Below are positions 761 to 61,997 of a DNA stretch of 64,000 bases, in pieces. Position numbers and translations under genes: made by a program. Source of the stretch: Macrostomum lignano (lineage: Eukaryota); the NCBI GenBank assembly GCA_002269645.1, contig NIVC01002246.1:186001-250000 (forward strand), read 5' to 3'. Each line of letters opens with the position of its first letter. Within the stretch, counting starts at the first letter, position 1. The notes under the pieces are model-generated. The model was not told the DNA's origin. It saw only the letters and a list, made by a program, of their open reading frames with translations, and did no database searches.

Positions 761-3178
761 TGTCGCAGCCAGCTTATTCAACTGATAGAGTTGAATCGCT
801 GACACAAATTCTCAGCGGTGGCAGCGGCGGCGCCCCGGCTAGCGATCATTTCGATCAGTACAGGTGAGCGCTTTGTTTGAATGGTTCATTGATGTACTTC
901 CTAGAGATTTCTGATGGAATTCCTGGGATTTCCGATGGGACTTCCTGGGAATTTCCGATGGGATTTCCTGGAAGTTCCGATGGGATTTCCTGGGGATTTC
1001 CGATGAGATTTCCTGGGGATTTCCAATGGGATTTCATGGGAATTTCCGATGGATTTCCTGAGGATTTCCTGGGGATTTCCGATGGGATTTCCTGGAAAGT
1101 TCCGATGGGATTTCCTGGGATTTCCGATGGGATTTCCTGGGGATTTTCGATGGGATTTCATGGGAATTTCGATAGGATTTCCTGGGGATTTCCGATGAGA
1201 TTTCCTGGGAATTACCGATGGGTTCCGTAAATTTTTGATGCGATTTCCTGGAGATTTCTGGTGGGATTTCCCAGGGATTTCAGAGGGGATTTCTGAAAAT
1301 TTCCGATGGGATTTCCGATGATATTTTCGATGGGGTTTCCAATGGATTTCCGATGAGACTCCATGTGGGTTTTCGTTGGAATTCCCTGTGGGATTTCAAT
1401 TGAGATTCCCTGAAAACTACCGATGGGATTACCTGGAGATTCCCGACAGGATTTCCGACGTGATTTCGAAGGGATTTCCTGTTGATTTGCAACGGAGTTT
1501 TCTCAACATCCAAGAGGATTTCCGAATGATGTCTCAATAATATCAGCGCAGTTTTTGCTGGGTTCATCGCAATTCAACAATATGCAGATGTCTATCGTCT
1601 ACCATCCAGAACCCTCGGCCACAACGGCGGCACCCGTCGAAAGCGGACAGCGGCATCGGGCCGACTCCTCTTTCGAAGAATCTACGGCCTCGCCCAACAA
1701 TAGCGGCGGTGGAGGCGGCAACGCAAGCGGCAGAGGCGTGGCGCCGGGGGCGGCGGCAGAGGCGCCGCGAACGTCGGAGGAGCGGCCGGGCCTCGGCTGG
1801 CGACTCGGACAGCGGGCTGAGCGAAGTCAGCGGCTCCGGACAGCTGGGACGCGGCGGCCGACGCAGACGGACAATGCCCTCCTGCTGAGCACCCGCCAGT
1901 GCGACCGGCCACAGTGGCGCACTCGACGCTGGAGGAGATCGCGCACAGGTGAGACTGGCGTCCACCGACACATGTCGATGGTCGATTGTGGATTGTAGAT
2001 TGTGGATTGTGGATTGTGGATTGCCGATTGTCGATTGTGGATTGTGGATTGCCGATTGTCGATTGTGGATTGGGGATTGTGGATTGTGGATTGTAGATTG
2101 TGGATTGTGGATTGTGGATTGTGGATTGTGGATTGCCGATTGTCGATTGTGGATTGTGGATTGTGGATTGTAGATTGTAGATAGTAGATTGTGGATTGTG
2201 GATTGTGGATTGTGGATTGTGGATTGTGGATTGTGGATTGTGGATTGTGGATTGTGGATTGTAGATTGTAGATAGTAGATTGTGGATTGTGGATTGTGGA
2301 TTGTGGATTGTGGATTGTGGATTGTGGATTGTGGATGTGGATGTGATTGTGGATTGTGGATTGTGATTGTAGATTGTAGATAGTAGATTGTGGATTGTGG
2401 ATTGTGGATTGTGGATTGTGGATTGTGGATTGTGGATTGTGGATTGTAGATTGTGGATTGTGGATTGTGGATTGTGGATTGTGGATTGTAGATTGTAGAT
2501 TGTGGATTGTGGATTGTGGATTGTGGATTGTGGATTGTAGATTGTGGATTTTGCATTGTGGATTGCGGATATTATGGATTGTTGATTGTTTATTGTGGAT
2601 TTCTGCTTGAAGCTTTATATCGCAGAATTTTTGTCACTAATTATTTTTGCATGCTCAATAGTCAGTTTGTTGATGCTGATTTTTAAATGTTTATTTTTGA
2701 TTCTTGATTCTCAATGATGACTATTTTAATTGTTAAAAATTCTTAGTCTTGCAGCCGGAAACTTACTAAAGAGGTTCCGCACGCCCCTATAAATTGCAGC
2801 GCGGAGAACCTCAAGAACTCCACATTCATCATTGAGAACGGCATTCGCAAGCGAGTGCACGCTGAGTCGCGGCCCTGTCTGGTGACCGACCCGGCCTCCA
2901 AGCTGACGCGTGCCTGTGCGTCAACGACGCCCGCTGATCCTGAGCGCCTGGCGCCGCTGCCGAGGCACTACCGGATCGAGTCGCAGGCAAAGCTGGCAAA
3001 GGATCTCGGCGAAGGCAGCCTGCCAGACGTCAGCGTGTGCCGGCATATCCGACGCCATGGCGGAGTGATGTCGCGCGACGAGGTCGCCCGACTGAGCGAG
3101 GCTCGCCGACTCGAACTTCTGCGGTTGGAGGAGCGGCGCAGACAGGGCGAAATCGTCATCCGAATGGCCGATCTTAAG
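471..3178 (+). CDS. Unidentified host gene A, exons 471-863, 1588-1948, 2755-3178 (polyQ, low-complexity protein); 5' end lies upstream of 471
   Basis: GC-rich segments bounded by canonical splice sites (ttcag|471, 863|gtgagc, tgcag|1588, 1948|gtgaga, ttgcag|2755, 3178|gtcagc). Exon 3 reads open (SRKLTKEVPH...RRQGEIVIRMADLK). Exon 2 is 361 nt, one base off the phase required, implying an indel. No family recognised. Confidence 0.6.
700..759 (+). repeat. Pure (CAG)20 polyglutamine tract in gene A exon
   Basis: Uninterrupted cag run in frame with ORF 433-867. Confidence 0.9.
900..1500. repeat. Degenerate ~20-bp minisatellite (GGGATTTCC/GATTTCCGAT core), intronic
   Basis: Tandem gggatttcctggggatttccgat variants, decaying towards the right. 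Confidence 0.85.
1985..2600. repeat. (GATTGTG)n heptamer array, intronic
   Basis: Direct inspection. Confidence 0.95.
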
Positions 3179-3394
3179 GTCAGCAGACTGTTAGAGAGGG
3201 GCGTGAGCGGTTGATGCATTATTTGGAGGCTAAATAATGTACAATACAATCACTCACTAGAACCCCACTGCCCCATTCAAACCAATGTACTTTCGCCAGT
3301 AGAAAGGAGGCAAAGTTGCAGTGCCAAGCTGATACGAAATAAAAAGCGGGGTTAGAGAGGAGCGTGAGCTGGGTGCTTTCTGTAGGTTAGAATT

Positions 3395-4376
3395 TGTTTG
3401 GCGCAAATTACGCAGATGGAATGAGGTGGGTGCGCTTTCTAGGGGGAGAGAGTTAGATTGGCGCAAAGTACGCAGATGGAGTGAGGTGGGTGCGCTTTCT
3501 ATGGGAAAGAGTTAGTTTGGCGCAAAGTACGCAGATGAGTGAGGTGGGTGTGCTTTCTAGGGGAGAGAGTTAGTTTGGCGCAAAGTACGCAGATGGAGTG
3601 AGGTGGGTGTGCTTCCAAGGGGGAGAGTTATGTTTGGCGCAAAGTACGCAGATGGAGTGAGGTGGGTGTGCTTTCCAGGGGGAGAGAATTAGATTGGCGC
3701 AAAGTACGCAGATGGAGTGAGGTGGTGCGCTTTCTATGGGAAAGAGTTAGTTTGGCGGCAAAGTACGCAGATGAAGTGAGGTGGGTGTGCTTTCTAGGGG
3801 AGAGAATTAGATTGGCGCAAAGTACGCAGATGGAGTGAGGTGGGTGCGCTTCTATGGGAAAGAGTTAGTTGGCGCAAAAGTACGCAGATGGAGTGAGGTG
3901 GGTGTGCTTTCTAGGGGAGAGAGTTAGTTTGGCGCAAAGTACGCAGATGAGTGAGGTGGTGTGCTTTCCAAGGGGGAGAGTTAGTTTGGCGCAAAAGTAC
4001 CAGACAGTGGAGTGAGGTGGGTGTGCTTTCTAGGGGGAGAGAATTAGATTGGCGCAAAGTACGCAGATGGAGTGAGGTGGGTGCGCTTTCTATGGGAAAG
4101 AGTTAGTTTGGCGCAAAGTACGCAGATGAAGTGAGGTGGGTGTGCTTTCTAGGGGGAGAGAATTAGATTGGCGCAAAGTACGCAGATGGAGTGAGGTGGG
4201 TGCGACTTTCCTATGGGAAAGAGTTAGTTTGGCGCAAAGTACGCAGATGGAGTGAGGTGGGTGTGCTTTCTAGGGGAGAGAGTTAGTTTGGCGCAAAGTA
4301 CGCAGATGGAGTGAGGTGGGTGTGCTTTCCAAGGGGGGAGAGTTAGTTTGGCGCAAAGTACGCAGATGGAGTGAGT
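3395..4376. repeat. ~59-bp tandem repeat containing GGAGTGAGGTGGGTG
   Basis: Repeated gcgcaaagtacgcagatggagtgaggtgggtgtgctttc units. Confidence 0.95.
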
Positions 4377-4907
4377 TTTTAGCAAAATTTAAATGAGCAG
4401 TTAAATCTCCATGTACGCATGTTTACCGTATTTTCTTATCTTATGCAACTGAATTTGTCGTTAGAGCTAAACTTAATGGCTTGCATCAGGCACGAAAATA
4501 CCGTTTGAAGTGTTTGATTTGAGGACAGCATGACTCTGGTCTGCTTGCCGAATACATTTTATGAACCAGCTTAAATTAAATTTCCCCAACTTTTATTTCG
4601 GGAAAATTGGAATGCAGGAGTTCAAACGACTTCCTCTGACTGATCCGCATCACGGATTTGTCACCCGGTCCAACATGCGCCGGTGCCGTCACTGCGCCGG
4701 CATTTCGGTGGTCGATCTGGCAGAGTGGAGCCAGCCAAAGCTCGTCACCTGTGGATTGAAGCGATCAAACTGCTGGCTGCCGCCACACTGCGCACCTGTC
4801 GCATTGCAGCCGACTTTCTTAAATTGGAGGCGAAGGTTTGACCGAATTAATTTGCGGGTCTATTGAGTTTCAAAAGTTAGTCAATAAGGAAGTACAGCTA
4901 CATGTTA

Positions 4908-5409
4908 TGGTTACCTGTTAGACAGGATATAGTTACCTGTTAGACAGGATATGGTTACCTGTTAGACAGGATATGGTTGCCTGTTAGACAGGATATGGTT
5001 GCCTGTTAGATAGGATATGGTTACCTGTTAGACAGGATATGGTTGCCTGTTAGACAGGATATGGTTACCTGTTAGACAGGATATAGTTGCCTGTTAGACA
5101 GGATATGGTTACCTGTTAGACAGGATATGGTTGCCTGTTAGACAGGATATGGTTGCCTGTTAGATAGGATATGGTTACCTGTTAGACAGGATATGGTTAC
5201 CTGTTAGACAGGATATGGTTGCCTGTTGGACAGGATATGGTTGCCTGTTAGACAGGATATAGTTGCCTGTTAGACAGGATATGGTTACCTGTTAGACAGG
5301 ATATGGTTGCCTGTTAGACAGGATATGGTTACCTGTTAGACAGGATATGGTTGCCTGTTAGACAGGATATGGTTGCCTGTTAGACAGGATATGGTTGCCT
5401 GTTAGACAG
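4908..5409. repeat. 21-bp tandem repeat with internal hairpin CCTGT-TAG-ACAGG
   Basis: ggtt(a/g)cctgttagacaggatat units. Confidence 0.95.
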
Positions 5410-7711
5410 GGAATAATCGTAAAAAGTTTTCAGCTCAGTTATATTTTTGTCATTTTGTTATCTTGGCAAATCAGAACAATTTATTATAGCAAATTGGCAT
5501 AATTAATGAGTAAATTTTTTTTATAAGTTTGGCACGCCAAGTTCGTCCCCGTGCATGCGTTTATAATTACAGTTTGAAGTGTTTTTATTAATTTAGATTA
5601 AAATCGCGAGACGAGAATTAAAAAGACACTAATTGTTTTATAACAACCTCGCACCCCCCCCCCCCAACCATTGCAGGACTGGTGTCAGGAGCACCTGCTG
5701 CTAGTATTCGTGTTCGTCATCAATACTGGTTTAGCCATGCTGTTTTTTAGCTTATTGACAAGTGAAAAAACTGACACCTGATATCTAGGGGGCATCGCAG
5801 GCCCTCTGTACCCTCTCTCCCGTTAGTTCTTATTCGTGTAACAAGAGCTATACTCTGATGCCCAGTTGTTTTACATGTAGCTTGTACAGCTTAGCTATAC
5901 AAGTGTGTTTTGACAACCTACACAAGTACTTACGCGACAAAGACTTATTAAAACAGCCTTTGCTGCCCTATAAGAGGTCTAAAAATGCGTTAAAATTTAT
6001 AGTTCCAGGCGCAAGTCGTGAAGTTGACAATGCAATTTAAATTATCTGATTGAATTAATTACGCTTAATTTTCGTCTTGGACAAATTAGATATTGATTTT
6101 ATTTTAATATCAATGCTTTTAATTCTCTGTCAAGCTGATAATTATTTCGATGATAAATATTTAGCAGAAGATCTATTTTCGTCCTGGGGTACATTAAATA
6201 TTAAATATATTCGACATTGCTCTTTGCACAGTTATATATTAACGGTCCCTGCACAATGTTGTTTGGACCAAGTTGACGAAATCCATCACACCTTTCTATA
6301 ATTACTTTCTGAATTGGAGCCACGTAAAATTTTAAAAATTATTGGCTATCATTGAATGGTGGCAGCGTTCTCTAAAACGGTTTTGCAAAGATTCACTGTT
6401 TAGGCTTTTGGCCATAGACTACTTCTGGTGGAGAAAATGCTGCCAAGTATAGAAAAGTACATTACAGGGACAGGAACGGCTGAAGATTCGGCGGAACTTT
6501 ATTATTAGTGATCGAAATGTCACTTCACGGCAATGACCGCCTGTTTCAGCCATAGACATTTCAATCAATGCGGCTAATATGATATGACGACGCACACTCG
6601 TGACCTTGGCTAAAACTAGCTGAAATGCTCGCTTCATACTAGCCTTCCTTTTACTTGCCCCGTCTCCGCGGAAAGCATTTCATGAAAACCTCAGCTTGAA
6701 AAATGAATCGAATTCAGCTCGGACAAAACACAGACAGCAGCTAGCACGCCCTCGAAATTCCTGTTAAAGTGTACCTGAGAAATGCCTGTGGTTGATTTAG
6801 AGACTCATTTCGAGGTTTCTGAAAGACGTACATGTACAGTACCCAGTCAATGCTGAGAACGAGCACATCTTGTGCATACATGCACATGCCATCTTCAGCG
6901 AGTAATTTAAGGTTCCTAATAGCGTACATGTATTACAGTTGATAACAATTTCTCTTACACGTATGTAGATGTCCCTTTAAAGTCGTTTCCTCCCATGTTG
7001 CAGCAGCATATATAACTACATGTACACATACATGTCTACATGCAGTTCCAGATCATATTATCATCAGTACATAATTGAATATGAAACATATACATCGATT
7101 ACATCCAAAGGGAATTAATATAAGCGTCGCCTGAACGCCAACCAACGCCCTCTCATGACGGCCCGCGTTGGAGCGCCGCCCCTGATGAGCGCTACTCTAC
7201 GCCGGCGCCGTCGACCATGCAGATACAGCTGGGCCACTGCCTCCGATCCGAACCTCTTGGCTGTGCTGAATGCATGTGCATCGACTGAACTGCAGTGCCG
7301 TTGCCTAGGCTTGGCATTCTGACTGAGTGCTTCATTGCCGACTTGCTTGCAGCTAGGCGCTTCCGCTGGCCCCTTATAAATAAACTATTGTTCAAAAGCT
7401 TCTAAAAAGTATCATTAATTTACAAAATTGATATTTTACGTAAACTGTAAAAGCGACGGCTTCTGCCAGTCTCTCCTGCCTGTATAGATGTACGAGCGCG
7501 TACAGTGAGGGCTGAATAAGCGCGCACAGGCACAAGCGCGCATGTGTATTTTTTGGCAAGTGTGGAAATAAGCGCGCACAGGCAAAAGCGCGCAAAAACC
7601 ACAGTGGCTTTACCGCGGAGGCAATTTTTACGGCTGAGAGACATAAGCAATTTTTACAGCTATCCGGCACAAAGTCACGAAAGCTGATGGCAAGGACTAT
7701 ACTCAAGTAAC

Positions 7712-7985
7712 AAGTTGTCCTTGTCATTATTTTAAACATTTTTTTTCAAGTGACAGACCAATTTAACTTGAAAAATCGATGAATGCGTCGTTAGAGCAGC
7801 ATGTGAGGCACAAAATAGTGTGATTAGAACTTTCTCTGACACTGTTAAGAGACCCAATCACTGTTTTAGTGTTGAAAATCGTGAAATTTCCTATTTCCGT
7901 AGTGTATTTTTCCGGTGAAACCTGCCTTAAAAACTATTTCTGAACGAAAAGCTTTATGAATATCGATAGAGCAATAAGAAAGGCA
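7712..7985 (+). mobile_element. Left half of a dispersed repeat interrupted by the Polinton (right half 18683-18750)
   Basis: Matches reverse complement of 61662-61997 continuously across the Polinton insertion point. Confidence 0.85.
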
Positions 7986-8668
7986 ACTACGTATCGTGCA
8001 GATTGTTGTCGATTTTGGAGGTGAGGTGGGTGTCAGAGCCAATGGAAATTCAACGCCTATCTAAATACATTAGACCTCTTCTAATTGGTCCAGACCCTGT
8101 AAGTCATTATGTGAGACATTTATGCATGTAACTCTCGTGTAAATCTAATTATACATGTAATCAGTGTACACTGTGTCGTACAGAAGCGACGAGTACAATA
8201 TAGTACGCATAATTAGCGCTTCACCGTAGCAGTTGTTGTACGCAGAAGCGCGCGCGCCCCCATCCCCACACAATGCAGCATTGGTGTACGCAGAATTAAC
8301 TGTCCATATTAACTGTCCATATACCAAAAATTGGCAGAATTAACGTGCGCCGACCCACCCGATAACTGTCCATATTATTACTTGTCCATATTTACTGTCC
8401 ATCCCAAAATTGGTGTACGCACAGAATTGTCTGTGACCCCCACAAAATTGGCGGCCCCACGCGGAGGCACGATGAGTCAGCCGCTGTAAATCGCTGCTAT
8501 CCACCCCTCTGCTGCAGCCTGTTATTTCCACTCACACCATTCTCCATCCCTCTAGAATTCTGTCCTCCGTAGCCACTCCGGGGCAATTACGTCATACCCA
8601 ACCCCTCCCCCAGAGCCAAATAAGTTTTCAAAAGGTGTATATATATTTACACAAAAAGCCGGCCGAGC
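7986..8668 (+). repeat. Left terminal inverted repeat of the Polinton (683 bp)
   Basis: Reverse complement of 17788-18682 apart from a short central segment; about 6 transition mismatches by eye. Confidence 0.95.
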
Positions 8669-8934
8669 CACAATGCTAACTTTATAGTCAGACACGTCAT
8701 CAAGGTCTGAAAACACAAACTTCTATGCATGAAATATTCTCGTTTAACAAGATGCCAAACCAATTTTGTTCAGACAGCAAACTATAAATAAGAAAATTTG
8801 GATTCTCGGCCGTTTATCTAAATTCACCTAGTTCAATTAACACCCCAATCATGTGGAAAACGCAGTGTTTGACAAGCAATTTTTGGTTGCCAAAGCACAA
8901 GAGGACAGACCGCCAAAGCATGAACTGGCAACAA

Positions 8935-10354
8935 CTTGGAGCAAGGATTTCAGCACACCTCCAACGCCAGCACCGAAAATAGGTACAAAAGGCTCATTTT
9001 TTCTGGAATCCTCGATAACGACAACACCGTAAAAAGCTCGTTAACATGTAATTAAAACAAAAACTTATTGAGACTCTCGGGTATATAAGCACCAACCCGG
9101 GGCACCAAGCACCCGTACCTGCAAATTTTTCTCGGATTCTCGGCAGTTTTTCAAGCTCGAATAACATCCCCACCACTAGTGCGAACAACGCAGCAGTGCT
9201 TGACAAGAAATGAGCTGGATTTCCAGAGACTACCCCCTATTTTCGAACGAGGAAAAAGACGAATATGAGGCCTTGAAAAAATCTGCTGACTGGTTGTGCA
9301 TTTGCCACAGCAAACCGATTTCCGAGCGATTAGTCACCTTCAATGCCAAGGTCGAGGAAATTGATCAAGGCCCCTACGACAGCCAAGACTACGCAGCAGC
9401 CAGGATAAATGAGCAACTACGGGACAAAATGAGATTCAAAGCTGATTTAGCACGAATGGAGAGATTACTGGCTCCGATACTAAGTGAGGAGCATCGCCAA
9501 AAAATACGTTTTCGGAACCATCAAGATCTGTATGATCCGTCGTGGGAGGAGCAACAAAAGATTTGGAATTTTTGGCTGCCAAAGCACAAGAGGAACAGGC
9601 CGCCAAAGCTTGAACTACCAGCAACTTGGAGCAAGGATTTCAGCACACCTCCAACGCCAGCACCGAAAATAGGTACAAAAGGCTCATTTTTTCTGGAATC
9701 CTCGATAACGACAACACCGTAAAAAGCTCGTTAACATGTAATTAAAACAAAAACTTATTGAGACTCTCGGGTATATAAGCACCAACCCGGGGCACCAAGC
9801 ACCCGTACCTGCAAATTTTTCTCGGATTCTCGGCAGTTTTTCAAGCTCGAATAACATCCCCACCACTAGTGCGAACAACGCAGCAGTGCTTGACAAGAAA
9901 TGAGCTGGATTTCCAGAGACTACCCCCTATTTTCGAACGAGGAAAAAGACGAATATGAGGCCTTGAAAAAATCTGCTGACTGGTTGTGCATTTGCCACAG
10001 CAAACCGATTTCCGAGCGATTAGTCACCTTCAATGCCAAGGTCGAGGAAATTGATCAAGGCCCCTACGACAGCCAAGACTACGCAGCAGCCAGGATAAAT
10101 GAGCAACTACGGGACAAAATGAGATTCAAAGCTGATTTAGCACGAATGGAGAGATTACTGGCTCCGATACTAAGTGAGGAGCATCGCCAAAAAATACGTT
10201 TTCGGAACCATCAAGATCTGTATGATCCGTCGTGGGAGGAGCAACAAAAGATTTGGAATTTTTGGCTGCCAAAGCACAAGAGGAACAGGCCGCCAAAGCT
10301 TGAACTACCAGCAACTTGGAGCAAGGATTTCAGCACACCTCCAACGCCAGCACC
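8935..10354 (+). repeat. Near-perfect 690-bp tandem duplication inside the Polinton, plus an older deleted copy at ~8800-8935
   Basis: 9210-9899 and 9900 onward are identical until ~10354; acttggagcaaggatttcagcac recurs at ~8935, ~9625, ~10315. Confidence 0.9.
9210..9722 (+). CDS. Polinton hypothetical protein, 170 aa (copy 1)
   Basis: Intact ATG ORF preceded by GGGTATATAAGC at 9079-9090; no family recognised. Confidence 0.7.
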   Translation: MSWISRDYPLFSNEEKDEYEALKKSADWLCICHSKPISERLVTFNAKVEEIDQGPYDSQDYAAARINEQLRDKMRFKADLARMERLLAPILSEEHRQKIRFRNHQDLYDPSWEEQQKIWNFWLPKHKRNRPPKLELPATWSKDFSTPPTPAPKIGTKGSFFLESSITTTP

Positions 10355-10436
10355 CGAAAATAGGAACAAAAGGTTCATTTTTTCCGGAATCCCCGATAAC
10401 GACAACTCTGTAAAAAGCTCGTTATCGTGTAATTAA
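9900..10436 (+). CDS. Polinton hypothetical protein, 178 aa (copy 2, different C-terminus)
   Basis: Identical to copy 1 up to PTPAP, then a 1-nt shift gives a different tail. Confidence 0.7.
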   Translation: MSWISRDYPLFSNEEKDEYEALKKSADWLCICHSKPISERLVTFNAKVEEIDQGPYDSQDYAAARINEQLRDKMRFKADLARMERLLAPILSEEHRQKIRFRNHQDLYDPSWEEQQKIWNFWLPKHKRNRPPKLELPATWSKDFSTPPTPAPENRNKRFIFSGIPDNDNSVKSSLSCN

Positions 10437-10531
10437 AACAAAAACTTATTGAGACTCTCGGGTATATAAGCACCAGCCCGGAGCATCTGCAAGCACCCGT
10501 ACCTGCAAATTTTTCTAAACAGACAAGAGAC

Positions 10532-11284
10532 ATGGAGACAGTGCAAGACTTCAACTGCGTCAAGCGAGAGCTGCTGGCACTCAAACCGCGAGGTCCGAGC
10601 TTCAACGGGGTTGAAACGTTTGACATTGAATATGACGAACAGGGACCTCTCTACTTGGCCAATGCGGTCCCTGTTTTGATCGTCAAGGGCGTGCGTACTG
10701 ACAACGAAGGTCGCGAATTCATCATCATTGCACAAAAACACATTGAAAGCTGCATACCCTACACTTTCAACACTGTGGCGGAGCACCTTTCCAGCGAAAG
10801 TCTAGCTCTGCTGGGCTACAACCCAGCGTTTGGAGGTGACAGTGCAGCGTTTGGGCTGGCTCACGACTTTAAAATGTACGACCAAAACGGACTGCCTGTA
10901 GAGGATTACAAAAACAAGAGCGGCTACTACAGGATTCTGTTTACTCTCGACACGGCCGTGATTCGAGACGCTGTTTTGACCGCAATGCCAAAAATTCAAC
11001 AGCTACAGTTTGTCGAAGAAGCCAAACAGGCATTTGATCGTTGCTATTGGACGCCACCTCCAAAAATCAAGGTAGGCACCAAGAAAGTAAGCAAGAAAGC
11101 AAAGAAACCACCAAAGCTTGTCAAGGAGAAGCTGCCAAAGGTGCCTAAAAATCAGGCCAGAAAGCGACAGCATCAATCGAAACTAGTAGCAGCCAACGAA
11201 TCAAAGAAGCGGTCGAAAGCCCCCAAGAAGGATACGAAAGTAAAAACTGCCGAAAAATCTACTTGCAGAACGTCGAGTGTGTGA
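10532..11284 (+). CDS. Putative T7 gp2.5/DUF2738-like OB-fold ssDNA-binding protein with Lys-rich tail
   Basis: C-terminal pattern FKMYDQNGLPV...SGYYRILFTLDTAVI...KIQQLQF resembles the NCLDV/DUF2738 SSB motif (by-eye match only); TATATAA at 10463. Confidence 0.5.
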   Translation: METVQDFNCVKRELLALKPRGPSFNGVETFDIEYDEQGPLYLANAVPVLIVKGVRTDNEGREFIIIAQKHIESCIPYTFNTVAEHLSSESLALLGYNPAFGGDSAAFGLAHDFKMYDQNGLPVEDYKNKSGYYRILFTLDTAVIRDAVLTAMPKIQQLQFVEEAKQAFDRCYWTPPPKIKVGTKKVSKKAKKPPKLVKEKLPKVPKNQARKRQHQSKLVAANESKKRSKAPKKDTKVKTAEKSTCRTSSV

Positions 11285-11742
11285 ACCGAGTGTTTTGCGC
11301 GAAATGGAGCCGCATGCCTGACTTGGACTGGGCGAGCGCACGGACATTTCGCAGACCAAGAGCTCTTATCAATTTGCGAATAGGAAAATGTACAATCAAC
11401 TTTTTTCAGCGCTCTTTGTCTGCAATTGTATTCGGTTGTCGCTCAGTCAACCAAGTTTTGCGTCTTTTTCCTCAATGTAAACCAATTTCTGTTGTTGTTA
11501 CCACTAGTACTTACCGCGCTGAAGTAGACAGATGGCCAAACTTTTTCCAAATTGCATACTCCGGGTCCCGCTGGGTGAAGTGGGAGTGCGAAGTTTTCAA
11601 TGGAATAGTAATAAAGTCTCCATTTCGCAATGCTAAATGTTTATTATGCGGAAAGAATGGCCGCCTTGTTTTCCTTGGAATACGAAACTTTAAAGAGCTC
11701 TGTCAAATGTACGATCATGTGACTAGCGTTTTGCATGTCTAA
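11263..11742 (+). CDS. TATA-binding-protein-like protein (two TBP half-repeats); no in-frame ATG before the domain start
   Basis: [39 protein letters not shown] aligns with TBP [54 protein letters not shown] aligns with [33 protein letters not shown] aligns with MRIREPRTTALIF..VCTGAKS. Confidence 0.75.
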   Translation: [159 protein letters not shown]

Positions 11743-12029
11743 TCCATGTAGCTGTTGCGTAACTTTACTGCTTTACCACTGTACCGAATTTGTATGTACG
11801 TACAAGCTGCTATGAAATTGTCTATAATATCGATCTTTCTCCGAAACAGTATCTGCGATTAAAGCGATACAGAAGATCGTTGCGTGAATTGGCAGACACA
11901 AAATTATCTATAAATAGGAAGAAGAATATGCTTCTCTCGAATCCTCAAGTCGGTGGCTTTCTACCCATCCTTGCATCTGTTGCTGCACCGCTAATATCAA
12001 GCCTGTTTGGCGGACTACTTGGTCGCTAA
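11735..12029 (+). pseudogene. Polinton small basic core protein (PW / adenovirus pX-like), probable 4-bp duplication frameshift near 11790
   Basis: LSPKQYLRLKRYRRSLRELA...QVGGFLPILASVAAPLISSL matches the conserved Polinton small protein and the pX GG/FLP motif; ATG 11735 joins the frame if one TGTA copy is removed. Confidence 0.7.
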
Positions 12030-12030
12030 A

Positions 12031-12678
12031 ATGAATAAATACGTTGTTGTACCAGAAGAAGAATTTAATAGACTAAGTCAAGGCGCACCCCGAGAAATTG
12101 CATCCAAAACAGAATATGAAAAACTCATTGAATACAACACTCAACTCCAAAATAAACTAAGTCAGATCAAGCAAAAGAAGAGTAATCGTTTTCCTGAACG
12201 ACAACGTGTTTGGGACATGCTGACAGAAAGATACCCAAATTTGGAGTACAACAAGTCGTGGGAAATTGTATTTGATGGAAAAACCTGGCCAGGAAGCAAT
12301 ATTTTCGATCTACTGAAGGAGATTACATCGAATGAAAGGCGCGACCGCCCAAGCCCAAAATATAGTACCGCTTTTTGGGCCCTGGCCGAAGAGGCAGATA
12401 TTGCAAAAGCTCTACTAGGACGACGCCAACAAGAAGAAGTCAGTGTGAAAAAAGAAGTCGGCACGGATCCGGATCGAGACGATTTTTTAGTCGAGCAAGC
12501 AATTGGAACTAATGATTTCTACAACGACTTCCACAAAGACCAAGCCAGTGGCCTGAATGAAATTAAAAAATCTGGAGATCGTGGCAGCGATGCCTACAGG
12601 CATGCTTCATACCAACTTCGCGAACCAAAGAGGCGGCAGAAACCAGCAGTAAAATACGAGACGTTAAAAAAACTATAA
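12031..12678 (+). CDS. Conserved Polinton uncharacterised protein (PZ-like), 215 aa
   Basis: N-terminal KYVVVP and DGKTWPGSNIFDLL motifs and position between the GGFLP protein and integrase match Polinton gene order as I recall it. Confidence 0.6.
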   Translation: MNKYVVVPEEEFNRLSQGAPREIASKTEYEKLIEYNTQLQNKLSQIKQKKSNRFPERQRVWDMLTERYPNLEYNKSWEIVFDGKTWPGSNIFDLLKEITSNERRDRPSPKYSTAFWALAEEADIAKALLGRRQQEEVSVKKEVGTDPDRDDFLVEQAIGTNDFYNDFHKDQASGLNEIKKSGDRGSDAYRHASYQLREPKRRQKPAVKYETLKKL

Positions 12679-12815
12679 ATAGAAATCATTTTCATGATAT
12701 ATAATCTGTTTTTGGATCATGGGTGCTGCAGCTGTAACTTCAAAGCTTTGCTCAGACAAACCGTCTGTGGAGTTCAAGTGTAATTACTCATGCTGTGCAT
12801 CGACTCTAGTTGCGA

Positions 12816-13861
12816 ATGAGGGTGAAAACCGCTCTTCGGAGAGTGTACGAACGGGGGACGCCGCTTTTACAAATGCTGCCCGTGTATATCAGGAGGCCAA
12901 ACGGCTGGTCCCCTCCCTGACGAGACACCAAACCGACGAATGGCTGAAGACCCAATCGAGCTACACCCGGCACAAGAGGGTTAAAAGAAAATTCCGAACC
13001 GGAAAAGTAATGTCGGGAGGCTTCATGGAAACCGTGCAAGCGGATTTGATGGACATGTCGCGATACGAACAATGGAATGATGGTCATCGATATATTCTAG
13101 TTGCAATTGACGTGCTTAGCAAATTGGCTTTTTGCCAGCCAATAAAATTGAAAAGCGACACTCCAAAGGCTTTTGAAAGCATGATCAAAGACTTCCCCAT
13201 TAAGCCTTTATATCTACACGTTGATCGAGGTACAGAGTTTTATAACAATCGCATGCAGAACTTACTGAAAGCCCATAATATCAAAATGTACAGTACAAAC
13301 TCTGAAAGGCTGATTAGGACTCTCCGAAAACGTTTAGCTCGCTACTTTGAGCATAAAAACGCGTGGCGTTGGATCGACTATTTGCCAATATTGGTTAAAA
13401 GTTACAACAACACAGTACACTCTACTATTGATATGAAACCTTCGAGTGTCGGTCTGCACAATCAAAAAGAATTGTGGGAAAAACTCTACAAGGATCCTGA
13501 ATATGATGAACCAGTTTACCAAAAAGGGGACTTTGTCAGAATTTCAAAATCTCGTCGAGCCTTTGACAAGGAAGCATACGATATGTACAGCGAAGAAGTT
13601 TACGTTGTGTCTCAAGTATGCCCGGGACCGCCTCATTTTTATCGCATTTCCGACCTATCTGGAGAACAAATCGAGGGTCGATTCTACTATAATGAACTTT
13701 CAAAGACGGTTCGACCGGACCGCTTTGTTATAGACAAAATTCTGCGTCGCAATGTCGTCATCAATGGTGTTGCTCATCGTTTCGTTAGTTGGCGCGGCTA
13801 TCCCGAGTCGTTCAATGCATTTGTACCAGTTGAGGAAGTTATAAATATAAGACAAGGATGA
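12816..13861 (+). pseudogene. Retroviral-type (rve, DDE) c-integrase with C-terminal chromodomain; N-terminal frameshift and short deletion near the catalytic Glu
   Basis: QADLMDM, YILVAIDVLSK, VDRGTEFYN, ERLIRTLRKRL, WIDYLPILVKSYNNTVHSTI, FVSWRGYPESFN motifs. Confidence 0.92.
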
Positions 13862-13895
13862 ACACACATACACTCGAAACGTGTAGTATATTACA

Positions 13896-15050
13896 ATGCA
13901 TCTATTCCTACCTAGCAATGCGTGCGTTGAGCACTATCCTGAGAATAATTCGGCACATTATAGCATTAATTTGCCCGACACCCTCCACTTTCCGAATCAT
14001 GAAGTCTGCATCGAACGGATCTACTTTTGTAAAGAATTCAAAACCGTCCCCGATAATCGAATGGTTGATGTCCTGACCAACGCTCCCGAGGATGAAGTGA
14101 TTGACATTGAGGTGAGAGAAAAACCCGCCTCCACGTATAAACAGTTTGCGTCGGTTTCTCTCGCCGCGGGGCTATCAACAGCCAACGAAGTGGTTGATGC
14201 AATCATCGCCGCTCTAAAATATGAGCAAGACGATAATGCGATGATTTGCATTGAGCGTTCACAGGAAGGCCAAATTTCAATTGTGAACAAATCATGGTAT
14301 GGTGCGAACATTAGGCTGTCCAGTAATGTGCGTAGCATGTTTTAAAAAGTTGATGACGCTGGAAATAAATCAAATATCGAAGTAACGACTTTTTTATTAA
14401 ACCCAAGAAATTCGTTAGTATTCGCTATAGAATTGGAGTCCTCCTCCTCCATAGAGAGTCCGATGACTCTAACGTTTGAAAAGAGTGTCTGGCCTTCTAG
14501 AACGTCACTGCGGATTGCTAAAGGATTCTACCGCACGCCCGATGAGCTCTTAAATTATGTTAATGGAGCGCTTTGGGGCGTCGTTTCAAAGCTCCCAATA
14601 AGTCCAGCGACGAGAGTGGATGCATTCCGCTACAACCCTTTTCTGAACCGGTGTGAGTACAAACCAATTGAAAACATTTTATTCGACATTGGAGAGCTTG
14701 CTGCCATTCTCGGCTTTCGCGAAGATGTTTTCAATGAAACTCCAAAGACCGCTAAACGACCAATCGATTTAACAAATGGTGTACAAACTATGTACATCTA
14801 TTCAAATATTGTCGACTCTGCCATTGTTGGAGACGTCAAAGTCCCCCTGCTTGGGGCAATTCCTTTGAATGAAAAGGTATACGGCGAACGAGAGTACTAC
14901 GAGTTTGTCAATCCATCCTACTTACCGTTGGTGAAACACCCATTCAAAACCATTGAGGTGCAAATCTGTGACGATATGGGCAAGTTAATGGATCGGATTC
15001 TTCGAGGCAAAACTGTTTTATCGATCAACATTCGTGAAATTAAGCTATAA
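13896..15050 (+). pseudogene. Minor capsid protein (penton, single jelly-roll) split by one in-frame TAA at 14343-14345
   Basis: N-terminal LFLPSN..YPEN....Y...LP and C-terminal MYIYSNIV...IVGD...PLL...F..P.Y.P.....TIEVQI.D motifs; ORFs 13896-14345 and 14433-15050 share a frame with open codons between them. Confidence 0.88.
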
Positions 15051-15094
15051 ATAAAGAAGTTTTCACGAATAAAAGGTAGCAACTGATCGACAAT

Positions 15095-15436
15095 ATGCCT
15101 TCAATCTTGATCGGAGGAGCTTTACCGGTATTTTCCGGTGCACAGCGCGGCAACGGCCTGTTTGGCAGCATTGCCCGATTTGCCCTGCCAATTTTAAAGA
15201 GTTTTGGCAAAAATATTCTTCGCCACGGAACACGAACCCTAGCTACAACAGTTAGCGACACACTCGATCAAGGCGGGAACTTGAAAGAAGCGGCATTGCG
15301 TAACTCTGTCCAGGCAGCTAAAGATGCTTTCAAGGACACAGTCGCACAACGAGGTAGCGGCAGACAAAGACGAAGAAAGATGACTAACAAAAAACGAGAA
15401 AAAGACTGCAGCATTCTGATATTTTCGACTCTATAA
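15095..15436 (+). CDS. Basic virion core-like protein with QRGNG/QRGSG putative protease sites, 113 aa
   Basis: QRGNGLFGSIARFALPILK...QRGSGRQRRRK resembles the conserved Polinton core protein upstream of MCP. Confidence 0.75.
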   Translation: MPSILIGGALPVFSGAQRGNGLFGSIARFALPILKSFGKNILRHGTRTLATTVSDTLDQGGNLKEAALRNSVQAAKDAFKDTVAQRGSGRQRRRKMTNKKREKDCSILIFSTL

Positions 15437-15505
15437 ATAAAAAAACCCGTGCCAATAACTGATCTGTCTATTAGAGCACCACACTAAGCCGCTGTTGAAA
15501 GAAAA

Positions 15506-16783
15506 ATGACTGAGTGCCTGTGTACAAAGTCGGAATTCGAGCTATTTGCTCCTCGCGCACACCAAATTGCTGCAATTAGCGCCACCACTGAAGAAGTTCA
15601 CCCTGTTGCCAGTGTTGAAAATGCCAGCGTGGTCGAATTTAGGATTGTTGGTGGTGAGACGTTTATCGATCTTAACGACATTGACCTCGAGATTAAGGCC
15701 CGCGTTAGGCAATCTAATGGCACAAATCTTGCTGCTGATTCGAATGTTGCGCCGGTCAATTACGTCCTTGAAAGCATGTTTAAAAACGTCACGTTGACAA
15801 TCAACGGGACACACGTAGAGTCGAGCAATAACAACCACGCTTACAAGGCCTATATTCGCACGTGTTCGAATTACGGACACGATTCAAAAACGAACCAACT
15901 GAGAATGATGGGCTACGCAAAGGACGCTGGAGGTCAAATGGCTGTGGTTGGAAATCCTGGCTTTGTAGCCCGCAAGGCGATGGCGGCAAACTCACGCACC
16001 TTTCACCTTTATGGACCTCTTAGTTTAGACTTTTTTGTTACCAACGACCGAATGCTACTGCCATACACTGATATGGTAATTACGCTGACCATGCACAATT
16101 CCGGCTTCGTTCTGGAAAGCCACGCGGACGGGGTTGATGCGCGGCTGGTACTCGAGAGTGCCAAACTACATGTGCGCCGCGTCAAGGCAAACCCTCAACT
16201 GGCTTTGGAGATTGAAGAACAACTAGGCAAACAGAATGCAATCTATCCGATTGAGCGACTTGTTGTGTACAATACTTCAGTGGCTGGCGGTGTTCGGGAC
16301 ATGTCAATCAATAATATATTTCCTGAACAAAAGCCTAAACTAGTGGTTGTTGACATGGTGAACAGCGGCGCATACAACGGTGTGGCTACACATAACCCGT
16401 TTAATTTTGAACCGTTTGGGGCAGACAGTGTCGCTCTGTATAAGGACGGAGTCAGTCTGTGTGGACAACCGTTTACTCCTCGATTCGGTGTTCATAACTA
16501 TGCTCGCGAGTATGCCATGCTACTAAAAAGCCTAGGAAAGATGAATCGGGACCTGGATATTGACGTATCATATTCCGACTATGGAGCTGGCTACTGCTTC
16601 TTCGCCTGGAATCTCATGCCCGACATGGAGCTGGGCGGGCATAGCATGCCTCGCGAGCGAGGGAATCTGACGCTACAAATAAAGTTTTCTGCTGCCTTGG
16701 CCGCAGGAATCAACGTGTTGGTGTTTGGCTACTTTGACAATACTGTGCAAATCACTCGCGGTCGTCAGGTTATTCTAGACTAC
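15506..16783 (+). CDS. Major capsid protein (double jelly-roll, Polinton PY); stop missing, reads through into the protease
   Basis: CTKSEFELF, VEFRI.G...IDL, NPFNF, GYCFFAWNL.PD, GNL.L..KF...L...INV.VFGYFDN.VQI..GRQVILDY motifs. Confidence 0.92.
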
Positions 16784-16840
16784 GTGCAGAAACAAACATC
16801 TCTTTTTTTATTCCCGAATAACGGCCATATTCATGCCAAT

Positions 16841-17289
16841 ATGAATAGTCTAGATATATTAGAACGTCTACTACTACCTGTCCCTGTTCGATTAACACCA
16901 GTTGACAGGATTCCGCAGCCTGTTTATCCTGCTGCATACGTGATTAACTTTGACACTGGCAATCTACCAGGCACTCACTGGGCTTTAATTTGTCTTCATG
17001 CCGATGAGAGCGTGACATTTTTTGACCCCTTGTGTATCGATCCTGTGCCAGATTTATTAAAGTTGTGGATCGCAAAGTATGTCTCCGCGGAGGTGGCCAT
17101 GAACCGGCATCCTGTACAGCATCAGCTAAGTGTGACCTGCGGGCTCATGTAATATTTGTGGCTGAAAAACACTTTCTGGAGGGTCTGTCAATTGAAAAAA
17201 TATTGCGCGACTGTTATAGCACAAATCTTTATGAGAACGACTTGATGGTGCAGAATCACTGTCTACAAATAAAGCAGCATCATCCATAA
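16841..17289 (+). pseudogene. Adenain-like cysteine protease, frameshifted at ~17141 just after the catalytic Cys
   Basis: GTHW (His), FFDP (Asp), PVQ (Gln), TCG (Cys); C-terminus HVIFVAEKHFLEGLSIEKIL...END continues in the other frame if one G is restored. Confidence 0.88.
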
Positions 17290-17297
17290 ATATATGC

Positions 17298-17771
17298 ATG
17301 ATTGGGCAGCCTATCAAAATGTATCAAACAATAGACCCCGACTCTTTAAAATTTGCCCCCAAAACGTCGGCAATTTTTGCTGGGGTGGCTCAAAGCGGCA
17401 AGACCACACTTGTGAAAAACCTATTGAGACAAGAGTTTTTTCAAGATCCGAAGCCGATTCGCGTAGACTGGTTTGGCCACTATCCAGATCCTGAACTGTT
17501 TGAATTGCCGTACCCTGTAAATTTTCGTTCGTGTACATTTGATCCTGAACAATATGTCCCTGAACCAAATATTCTGCTTGTCGTCGATGACCAAATGCAT
17601 GCCATGGAAAAGAGTGGCGCTTTTACAACTTTTTTCACGCGCAAAGTCTCCCACGTGGGGTTCCGACTTTGGTATCTTGTGCAAAACCTGTTTGCAAAGG
17701 GTTTGCAAAATGCTCCTGCTCGCTATTATTCAATCGTTTTGGGTCGTCACCCAATTGTGTATGCTAAATAA
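17298..17771 (+). pseudogene. A32/FtsK-like packaging ATPase, C-terminally truncated
   Basis: Walker A GVAQSGKT, Walker B LLVVDD, FTRK.SH and QNLF motifs; similarity ends soon after QNLF. Confidence 0.85.
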
Positions 17772-17787
17772 ATATATACGTATCAAA

Positions 17788-18682
17788 GCTCGGCCGGCTT
17801 TTTGTGTAAATATATATACACCTTTTGAAAACTTATTTGGCTCTGAGGGAGGGGTTGGGTATGGCGTAATTGCCCCGGAGTGGCTACGGAGGACAGAATT
17901 CTAGAGGGATGGAGAATGGTGTGAGTGGAAATAACAGGCTGCAGCAGAGGGGTGGATAGCAGCGATTTACAGCGGCTGACTCATCATGCCTCCGCGTGGG
18001 GCCGCCAATTAATTGTGAGGGGCGACAGAATATTTTCTTGGATGGGTGGGCGCTACAATTCTGCGCGTACATCACTTTTGGGTATGATCGAACAGCTATG
18101 GGGTGGGCGGGCGCTACAATTCTGCGCGTACATCACTTTTGGGTATGATCGAACAGCTATGGGGTGGGCGGGCGCTACAATTCTGCGCGTACATCAATTT
18201 TGGGTATGATCGAACAGCTTTGGGGTGGGCGGGCGCTACAATTCTGCGCGTACACCAATTTTGGGATGGACAGTAAATATGGACAAGTAATAATATGGAC
18301 AGTTATCGGGTGGGTCGGCGCACGTTAATTCTGCCAATTTTTGGTATATGGACAGTTAATATGGACAGTTAATTCTGCGTACACCAATGCTGCATTGTGT
18401 GGGGATGGGGGCGCGCGCGCTTCTGCGTACAACAACTGCTACGGTGAAGCGCTAATTATGCGTACTATATTGTACTCGTCGCTTCTGTACGACACAGTGT
18501 ACACTGATTACATGTATAATTAGATTTACACGAGAGTTACGTGCATAAATGTCTCACATAATGACTTACAGGGTCTGGACCAATTAGAAGAGGTCTAATG
18601 TATTTAGATAGGCGTTGAATTTCCATTGGCTCTGACACCCACCTCACCTCCAAAATCAACAACAATCTGCACGATACGTAGT
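17788..18682 (-). repeat. Right terminal inverted repeat of the Polinton (895 bp) with an internal 61-bp tandem array at 18043-18262
   Basis: Reverse complement of 7986-8668; ctacaatt recurs at 18053, 18114, 18175, 18236. Confidence 0.95.
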
Positions 18683-19036
18683 AAGGCACAACATATCAAA
18701 AGATGAACACTGGATCTGCCTCCTTATCAAAATCAATAACAATATTTGTGCTGAAAAAATTAAAACCTCCTATCTCTGTAGTGTATTTTTCGGCGAAAAG
18801 TTGCCTTCAAAACATTTACCATAGATTTCGAGTGTAGCGTCCAATTCTACTACTTAAGTTGTCCTTGGCTGATGGTCCGGCACAAAGTCAGGAAGCTTTA
18901 TTTTCTCTATACGGCTTTGTCTCAGCCCTACTGTAACTCTAGTCTAAGGCACTGGCTGCAGCAGCTGATGGTCCGGCAGTGGCTGCTCTGAGGCCGGGCG
19001 AACAGTGTCCACACCACCTTCTAGGTAACCTTCTAG

Positions 19037-61661: not shown

Positions 61662-61997
61662 GCACAAAAATTGTTATTGCTTTGATAAGGAGGCAGATCG
61701 ACACGTTCATCTTTTGATATTTTGTGCCTTTCTTATTGCTCTATCGATATTTATAAAGCTTTTCGTTCAAAAATAGTTTTAAAGGCACGTTTCACCGGAA
61801 AACACACTACGGAAATAGGGAATTTCACGATTTTCAACACTTAAACAGTGATTGGGTCTCCTAACAGTGTCAGAGAAAGTTCTAATCACACTATTTTGTG
61901 CCTCACATGCTGCTCTAACGACACATTAATCGATTTTTCATGTTAAATTGGTCTGTCACTTGAAAAAAACGTTTTAAATAATGACAAGACCAACTTA
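61662..61997 (-). mobile_element. Uninterrupted copy of the repeat hosting the Polinton (empty site, single AAGGCA at 61725-61730)
   Basis: Reverse complement reads ...gatagagcaataaga AAGGCA caaaatatcaaaagatgaac..., joining both Polinton flanks. Confidence 0.9.

Follow-up and report, generated by a model that had tools for sequence, protein, structure and literature searches.

How can an element with a Polinton virion module multiply when it carries no protein-primed DNA polymerase (pPolB)? The question is raised by the element at positions 7986..18682 of a stretch of 64,000 nucleotides from Macrostomum lignano (assembly GCA_002269645.1, contig NIVC01002246.1, forward-strand positions 186,001 to 250,000; the whole stretch is hereafter the window). 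An earlier note, made from the letters of the window alone, had described a recently inserted Polinton damaged in several genes, and had offered two explanations, a non-autonomous derivative mobilised by a helper, or a lineage in which other genes had taken the place of pPolB. Comparison of the genomic copies points to a different answer: the element is probably segment A of a bipartite Polinton, in which two DNAs, A and B, would complement each other through shared ends.

The element and its missing polymerase

Elements sharing the ends of the window element fall into three classes: A, with the gene order of the window; B, carrying pPolB; and C, non-coding. The window element (family 1, class A1) is genuine, and bounded on both sides by a 6-bp target site duplication (TSD). 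Its terminal inverted repeats (TIRs) and flanks are as follows.

7980..7985, unstranded: left TSD AAGGCA
7986..8668, + strand: left TIR, 683 bp; beyond the first ~31 nt it shows no relation to most B1 TIRs, and is ~90% like some class C TIRs
7986..8016, + strand: terminal 31 nt in shuffled blocks, found also in B1 (with pPolB) and in class C (non-coding); presumably the origin and the end used by the integrase
17788..18682, - strand: right TIR, with additional 61-bp repeats
18683..18688, unstranded: right TSD AAGGCA

A recount of the TIR arms agrees with the earlier note, giving 6 transitions over 667 positions without gaps, 4 of the 6 at CpG/TpG/CpA sites, and the perfect TSD is present at both flanks. 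The right arm is longer by ~210 bases of the 61-bp repeat. The claim of recent integration holds only in relative terms, because the TIRs of the window element are already 0.9% apart; C522, a copy of the same insertion site assembled separately, diverges from the window copy by 0.44%. The termini read 5'-ACTACG..CGTAGT-3', versus the usual AGTAGT..ACTACT. The element lies within a host repeat (7731-7910, inverted again at 61799-61978, and also 18680-18779), which recurs in L068. Positions 880-5500 and 27000-56000 of the window are dense with many different minisatellite arrays (14-34-bp units).

Neither a pPolB frame nor a remnant is visible, as the earlier note had stated. Eight pPolB queries gave no tblastn match in the window at E<=1e-3, and eight pPolBs compared by phmmer --max to the six frames of 7986-18682 reached a best domain score of -1.0 bits; these searches cover the interior in which a remnant would have spoken against the absence. 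Copies collected through the TIR share the loss without exception (pPolB in cis in 0/16 A1 copies), and the same is true of a second family, A2 (0/7 copies). The lack of a polymerase is characteristic of the family as a whole rather than the result of damage. Lacking pPolB in cis, class A alone is not a Polinton by strict definition; A plus B jointly contain the full Polinton gene set.

Two classes of elements with shared ends

The first 215 bases of the element, used as a query, gave 40 scored matches, many paired ~10 kb apart, and a 16-base end pattern matched the genome 143 times, versus 0 for the reversed control; 100 of the 143 matches are listed, and 40 elements with family-1 ends have been tabulated. 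C471 and C1849, in which both ends point in the same direction, and the B2 elements at C157 and C1131, whose ends are unresolved, are left out of the counts.

Class A1 includes 16 copies at 13 sites, with a perfect TSD at 11 of the 13. All have the window gene order, and their gene content comprises capsid, penton, protease, ATPase and integrase, along with a single-strand binding protein (SSB)-like and a TBP-like protein. Over positions 12,000-17,200, 11 copies are 1.0-3.3% divergent from the window. The A interior is found in 20 public sequencing runs from 8 studies; none of the listed runs is on record as an RNA run.

The genome contains 119 pPolB matches, some of which lie between family-1 ends. 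These define class B1: 7 copies at 6 sites, each copy with a perfect 6-bp TSD, carrying pPolB (Pfam PF03175, 98.7 bits), to which PC4 and dUTPase are added in some. Class A genes were found in none of the 7 copies with A1, A2 and one-piece Polinton queries (C221 was covered over 20 of its 34 kb). The B polymerase has both exonuclease and polymerase motifs, and we take it, from a motif read by eye, to be of the VSR-bearing kind. GT-AG introns interrupt its frame, one of them within motif A, and their positions relative to the motifs agree between B1 and the second family, B2. Four B1 pPolB splice joints have been found in runs X9, X13 and X17, not in X1; three are clean GT-AG joints, and one has 9 other letters between. 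The run types of X9, X13 and X17 are guessed, but the spliced joints show that they contain RNA. The empty site of the C566 insertion is present in runs X9 and X1. The UniRef proteins nearest to the B polymerase (87-98%) are labelled Macrostomum lignano.

The gene sets of A and B are thus complementary and mutually exclusive, and either class integrates independently, with a 6-bp TSD. What A1 and B1 share is limited to the terminal ~31 bases. The 31-base end of the window element is identical in the B1 copies C1486/C221, and the terminal ~31 bases are a mosaic, in which 3 of 5 block-1 variants and 4 of 8 block-2 variants are present in A1, B1 and C. Terminus positions 9-27, in family 1 as in family 2, consist of hypervariable blocks, mostly the same at both ends of a copy and shuffled among copies and classes. 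The A1 subterminal motif GGAGGTGAGGTGGGTGTCA (window 8013-8035) reappears in B2 and C2 ends, not in B1, a crosswise likeness. At C996 and C356/C1588 the flanks are mutually reverse complement rather than a TSD, an inversion or an assembly fold-back.

A second pair, and selection on both halves

Capsid matches at 78-88% define class A2, polymerase matches at 60-70% class B2. The 7 A2 copies have the A1-type gene order without pPolB, and 4 of their TSDs have been resolved. A Fic-domain gene (L071:1412-2188, Pfam E 6.6e-14) is present in both A2 copies checked, and A1 lacks it. Among the 8 B2 copies taken, 7 have the PC4/pPolB layout of B1, 6 have a TIR pair with a perfect 6-bp TSD, and in none was a capsid found. 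An integrase match beside C1412 was rejected as part of B2, as it falls outside the TSD. A2 and B2 both start ACTACTA, and C181 (A2) and C211 (B2) have 31 identical terminal bases.

Between families 1 and 2 the 11 A genes have pS values of 0.66-0.91 and omega values of 0.03-0.25, the capsid being at 0.03; the corresponding figures for four B parts are 0.70-0.74 and 0.09-0.22. The substitution patterns indicate that both halves have remained functional over a divergence long enough for silent sites to become saturated. As synonymous sites are saturated, and purifying selection is seen in both lineages, the split appears to be old. The ORF170, SSB-like and TBP-like genes are conserved and under selection as well.

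Absence of a joined form

No joined A+B element was found among 62 places with an A capsid and 105 with a B polymerase in the one host genome examined, scoring the best 99 of 517 major capsid protein (MCP) matches and the best 140 of 1593 integrase matches. An A capsid and a B polymerase occur on one contig in three pairs only, spaced 47, 103 and 167 kb. Among the best 140 of 1593, A integrase matches are at least 77%, and then drop directly to 42%, the next integrase families being at 39-42%. Other Polinton families served as a control: pPolB adjoins virion or integrase genes in 7 of 8 loci, and the eighth (C424) resembles, by eye, a deletion retaining the 5' end of pPolB. Several one-piece families coexist (L105-L120: C2529, C3758, C4619, C84, C424, C114, C506, C2466), and encode dUTPase, TBP, deoxynucleoside kinase and phospholipase A2-like genes; their TBP genes lie beside pPolB. 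The only one-piece family with resolved ends (C4619) begins AGTAGTAG. At L122 (C234) a degraded pPolB, 31% like class B, adjoins a 719-bp inverted repeat, with no capsid match in 26 kb.

In trees, which leave out the one-piece capsids cut by locus borders, A1 and A2 form one clade, and B1 and B2 another, each long-stemmed and apart from the one-piece families. Because long branches meet, no donor is claimed. Capsids 80-81% identical and SSB-like proteins 41-60% identical are found on short contigs in ENA, Logan and JGI (P0001-P0003, P0055-P0057), and the lineage therefore exists outside the Macrostomum genome. The locus around the 81%-identical capsid was not found in the metagenome and viral contigs scanned.

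Genes of the window element

All genes of the window element are on the + strand, and for eight of them a TATA box lies 45-128 bases ahead of the next ATG.

8932..10354, + strand: tandem duplication, 690 bp, containing ORF170, not in same-site copy C522
9210..9722, + strand: ORF170 copy 1, function unassigned, purifying selection versus A2 (omega 0.11)
9900..10436, + strand: ORF170 copy 2
10532..11284, + strand: T7 gp2.5-like OB-fold SSB with basic tail (moderate support)
11239..11742, + strand: TBP-like protein, overlapping the SSB 3' end, with a conserved start without ATG
11763..12029, + strand: PW-like gene, 5' part (210 bp) lost in the window copy and C522
12031..12678, + strand: ORF215, homologue of a small ORF of one-piece Polintons in the genome (phmmer E 2e-6)
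12698..13861, + strand: retroviral-type integrase (Pfam rve 33.8 bits, above cut-off)
13896..15050, + strand: penton (minor capsid; tblastn to one-piece Polinton ORFs, E ~1e-7)
15095..15436, + strand: PZ-like gene (phmmer match, E 2.5e-4, with the ORF that precedes MCP in one-piece Polintons)
15506..16790, + strand: major capsid protein, homologs including F54H12.2-like Polinton capsids (30-35%)
16841..17289, + strand: adenain-type cysteine protease (A2 ortholog Peptidase_C48, E 0.06), private frame break near 17,140
17319..17771, + strand: A32-type packaging ATPase, Walker A and B visible; 3' deletion of 177 bp, also in C522

The virion set (major and minor capsid, ATPase and protease) is homologous to Polinton proteins in the databases and to those of the one-piece families of the genome. 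The names PW, PZ, penton and adenain are those which we presume to apply, and no library match returned them. ORF170 has no Pfam match above cut-off, and no match in phages. The model of the SSB-like protein (pLDDT 55.6) has T7 gp2.5 as best VIA structure match (Z 6.4, rmsd 6.0, 120 aligned), followed by DUF2815 (Z 6.0), ASFV CP312R (5.6) and the Enc34 SSB (5.6); as a Z under 8 is not decisive, the assignment has moderate support. The TBP-like call is made because the A2 ortholog, which is 76% identical, matches Pfam TBP (23.0 bits, cut-off 22.9) and a PDB TBP (E 0.0027); the window frame by itself has no match in Pfam or PDB. Its single-sequence model (pLDDT 41) is too poor for use, and the ESM Atlas gave no usable match for either protein. 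Frame 11239-11742 is without a TATA box of its own, and the TBP-like protein may be produced via splicing or frameshifting.

The lesions noticed earlier in PW, integrase, penton, protease and ATPase have all been found again, and a sixth, previously missed, is a capsid frame which reads through into the protease in the window copy and C522 (548 aa versus 427). The integrase has a 7-codon deletion near 13,300, also in C522, and a frame break near 12,850 private to the window; the penton has a premature stop at 14343-14345, also in C522, and in 8 of the 10 copies tested this codon is open. Because they are common to the separately assembled C522, the PW, integrase, penton and ATPase lesions and the capsid run-on are real. 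The frame breaks near 12,850 and 17,140, each of a single base, are found only in the window copy, versus 12/12 other copies, and may both be assembly errors. The damage does not extend to the family, since undamaged full-length frames occur in 4-11 of the 16 A1 copies per gene (integrase 6, penton 4, capsid 5, protease 8, ATPase 11). To judge from these comparisons, the lesions of the window copy are mostly real but copy-specific.

Putative satellites and recombinants

Class C includes 13 family-1 elements, 11 with TSDs, which have no long ORF other than in inserted retroelements; of those tested, the majority are palindromic over most of their length. Their family-2 counterpart C2128 is an 8.8-kb palindrome with a TSD. 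Palindromic derivatives have been formed from A1 ends (C1313) and from B1 ends (C2274), C1438 has hybrid termini, one TIR being B-type and the other A-type, and C843 is a mosaic of A2 and B2 pieces. Strand-displacement replication with template switching among co-present DNAs is expected to yield such palindromes and recombinants. At C2301, C3189, C664 and C1090, integrase or PC4 matches occur as inverted pairs 6-12 kb apart, which suggests palindromic derivatives in other families too.

Discussion

B elements, which have no integrase, are flanked by TSDs, and A elements, which have no pPolB, have multiplied with intact ends; for these reasons mutual complementation is the simplest reading. 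Segment A (~10 kb) would provide the integrase, the virion module, the SSB and the TBP-like protein, and segment B (~9-10 kb) the protein-primed polymerase with its terminal-protein region, PC4 and often dUTPase. In a nucleus containing both, the B pPolB would prime at the shared ends and copy both linear DNAs by strand displacement, assisted by the SSB of A; the A integrase would insert both segments, and the A ATPase would package the two into capsids, with each particle probably receiving a single DNA. Template switching could give rise to palindromic derivatives and swapped end blocks, and the class C elements would be satellites needing both segments. Packaging is suggested solely by selection on the virion genes (capsid, protease, ATPase). 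We also lean towards a wider formulation, in which these elements represent a segmented dsDNA virus of the PRD1-adenovirus lineage, with modules on two linear DNAs packaged, transmitted and integrated separately. The split would predate the two pairs, recombination would keep the end "barcode" matched within each of them, and each would support non-coding palindromic satellites of its own.

Several points weigh against a bipartite Polinton. The support consists of sequence data, not of virions, free linear DNA or trans-activity. Class C has the shared ends and yet encodes nothing, so that shared ends alone are no proof of need, and A1 and B1 TIRs are mostly unrelated beyond ~31 nt. The candidates scored were the best 99/517 MCP and 140/1593 integrase matches, coverage extended to 20/34 kb of C221 and to one host genome, and the capsids 80% identical elsewhere are on contigs under 4 kb, with no context found.

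The helper proposed in the earlier note may be considered in this light. Dependence on a partner is supported, but the partner is a pPolB element with the same ends which lacks both capsid and integrase; a full-length helper with matching TIRs was sought among the genome copies, and none was found. A and B might still be deletion derivatives of a full-length Polinton missing from the assembly, or existing only exogenously. Such derivatives are frequent in this genome (C424, C1438, C2132), the assembly has 5269 contigs, and searches provide lower bounds. We nevertheless regard this origin as unlikely, because identical breakpoints, gene orders and layouts would need to have arisen twice, in families with saturated synonymous sites, no B polymerase lies near any of the 62 capsid places in a genome where one-piece Polintons assemble well, and the inner TIRs differ between A and B. 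That the architecture is an assembly artefact, with collapsed or misjoined interiors, is scarcely credible: the assembly does contain pairs of haplotigs and a few flanks that are inverted (C996, C356), but the same organization is found at 13 A1 and 6 B1 sites, each with its own TSDs, and the A interior is present in the 20 public runs from 8 studies.

The dependence might also run one way. A could rely for its copying on host enzymes or on a one-piece family's pPolB, and B would be a capsid-less element which borrows the A integrase and mimics A ends. A encodes an SSB itself, pPolB-bearing one-piece families are abundant, and class C indicates that A functions are open to parasitism. This too we hold to be improbable, since the resolved one-piece family (C4619) begins AGTAGTAG, B has retained a spliced, selected pPolB and has followed the ends of its partner in two families, and A yields palindromic derivatives like those of B. 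The other proposal of the earlier note, an autonomous lineage in which SSB-like, TBP-like and ORF170 functions replace pPolB, found no support, and is very improbable. These genes are conserved and selected, and Tlr1 and Polinton-like viruses (PLVs) have replaced or modified pPolB (PMC11161782; cited works are referred to here and below for the parts of them that were available). But Pfam reveals no helicase, primase or polymerase domain in A ORFs, class B would be left unexplained, and TBP adjoins pPolB in one-piece families; as these carry both, TBP is not a substitute for the polymerase.

The system has the long TIRs and short TSD (6 bp, within the Polinton range of 5-8 bp) of Polinton/Maverick elements (Orthopolintovirales, adintoviruses), and like them encodes an RVE integrase, a capsid and penton, a protease and an ATPase, with PW and PZ. 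The partner B has a VSR-type pPolB (motif by eye), and a VSR pPolB2 is described in PMC10748475; TBP-like genes are noted in an adintovirus figure legend (PMC8502044). In contrast to known Polintons, which range from 13 to 25 kb (PMC10748475), genes are here distributed over two separately integrating ~10-kb DNAs. The end motif is ACTAC..GTAGT, versus the Polinton motifs (AGT)2//(ACT)2, (AG)3 and (AC)3A, and introns are present in the B pPolB, unlike in intact vertebrate Mavericks, which have none (PMC8097293). Bidnaviruses (BmBDV) have a Polinton-derived pPolB and two linear segments with matching termini, which are packaged separately (PMC4061559, PMC8502044). They differ in having ssDNA, a parvovirus-type capsid and an S3 helicase, no integrase, and pPolB and major capsid on one segment; class A has a Polinton-type capsid and an integrase. 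Tlr1 and PLVs likewise have a virion module without canonical pPolB, and Tlr1 retains the RVE integrase (PMC11161782), but there a substitute replication protein is encoded in cis; none was found by Pfam in class A, which has a partner instead. Replication and structural cassettes reside on two segments in the Acheta domesticus segmented densovirus as well (10.1101/2022.10.20.513106), an unrelated small ssDNA parvovirus, which does not integrate. The yeast killer plasmids pGKL1/2 are a pair of linear, protein-primed DNAs of which one assists the other (PMC13348850), but are cytoplasmic, and form no virions and do not integrate.

Polintons in the literature covered are single molecules. A bipartite Polinton was not found in the available parts of the works searched (among which PMC11131425, 10.64898/2026.06.19.733378 and PMC6431247), a set outside Repbase, subscription papers and supplements such as the tables of PMC10748475. 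Insertions of Orthopolintovirales in flatworms are noted in 10.1101/2025.04.19.649669, in whose available text the word "segment" is absent. Published screens require core genes together, either five proteins within 20 kb or pPolB-integrase linkage (PMC10748475). Such screens would discard split families as debris, and many "incomplete" Polintons may therefore be segments. If the bipartite reading is true, replication and integration, and perhaps packaging as well, need no more than a short cis signal of ~31 nt, and the genome of this laboratory-kept animal would hold a dated record of a DNA virus turning multipartite, in which insertions would give segment ratios.

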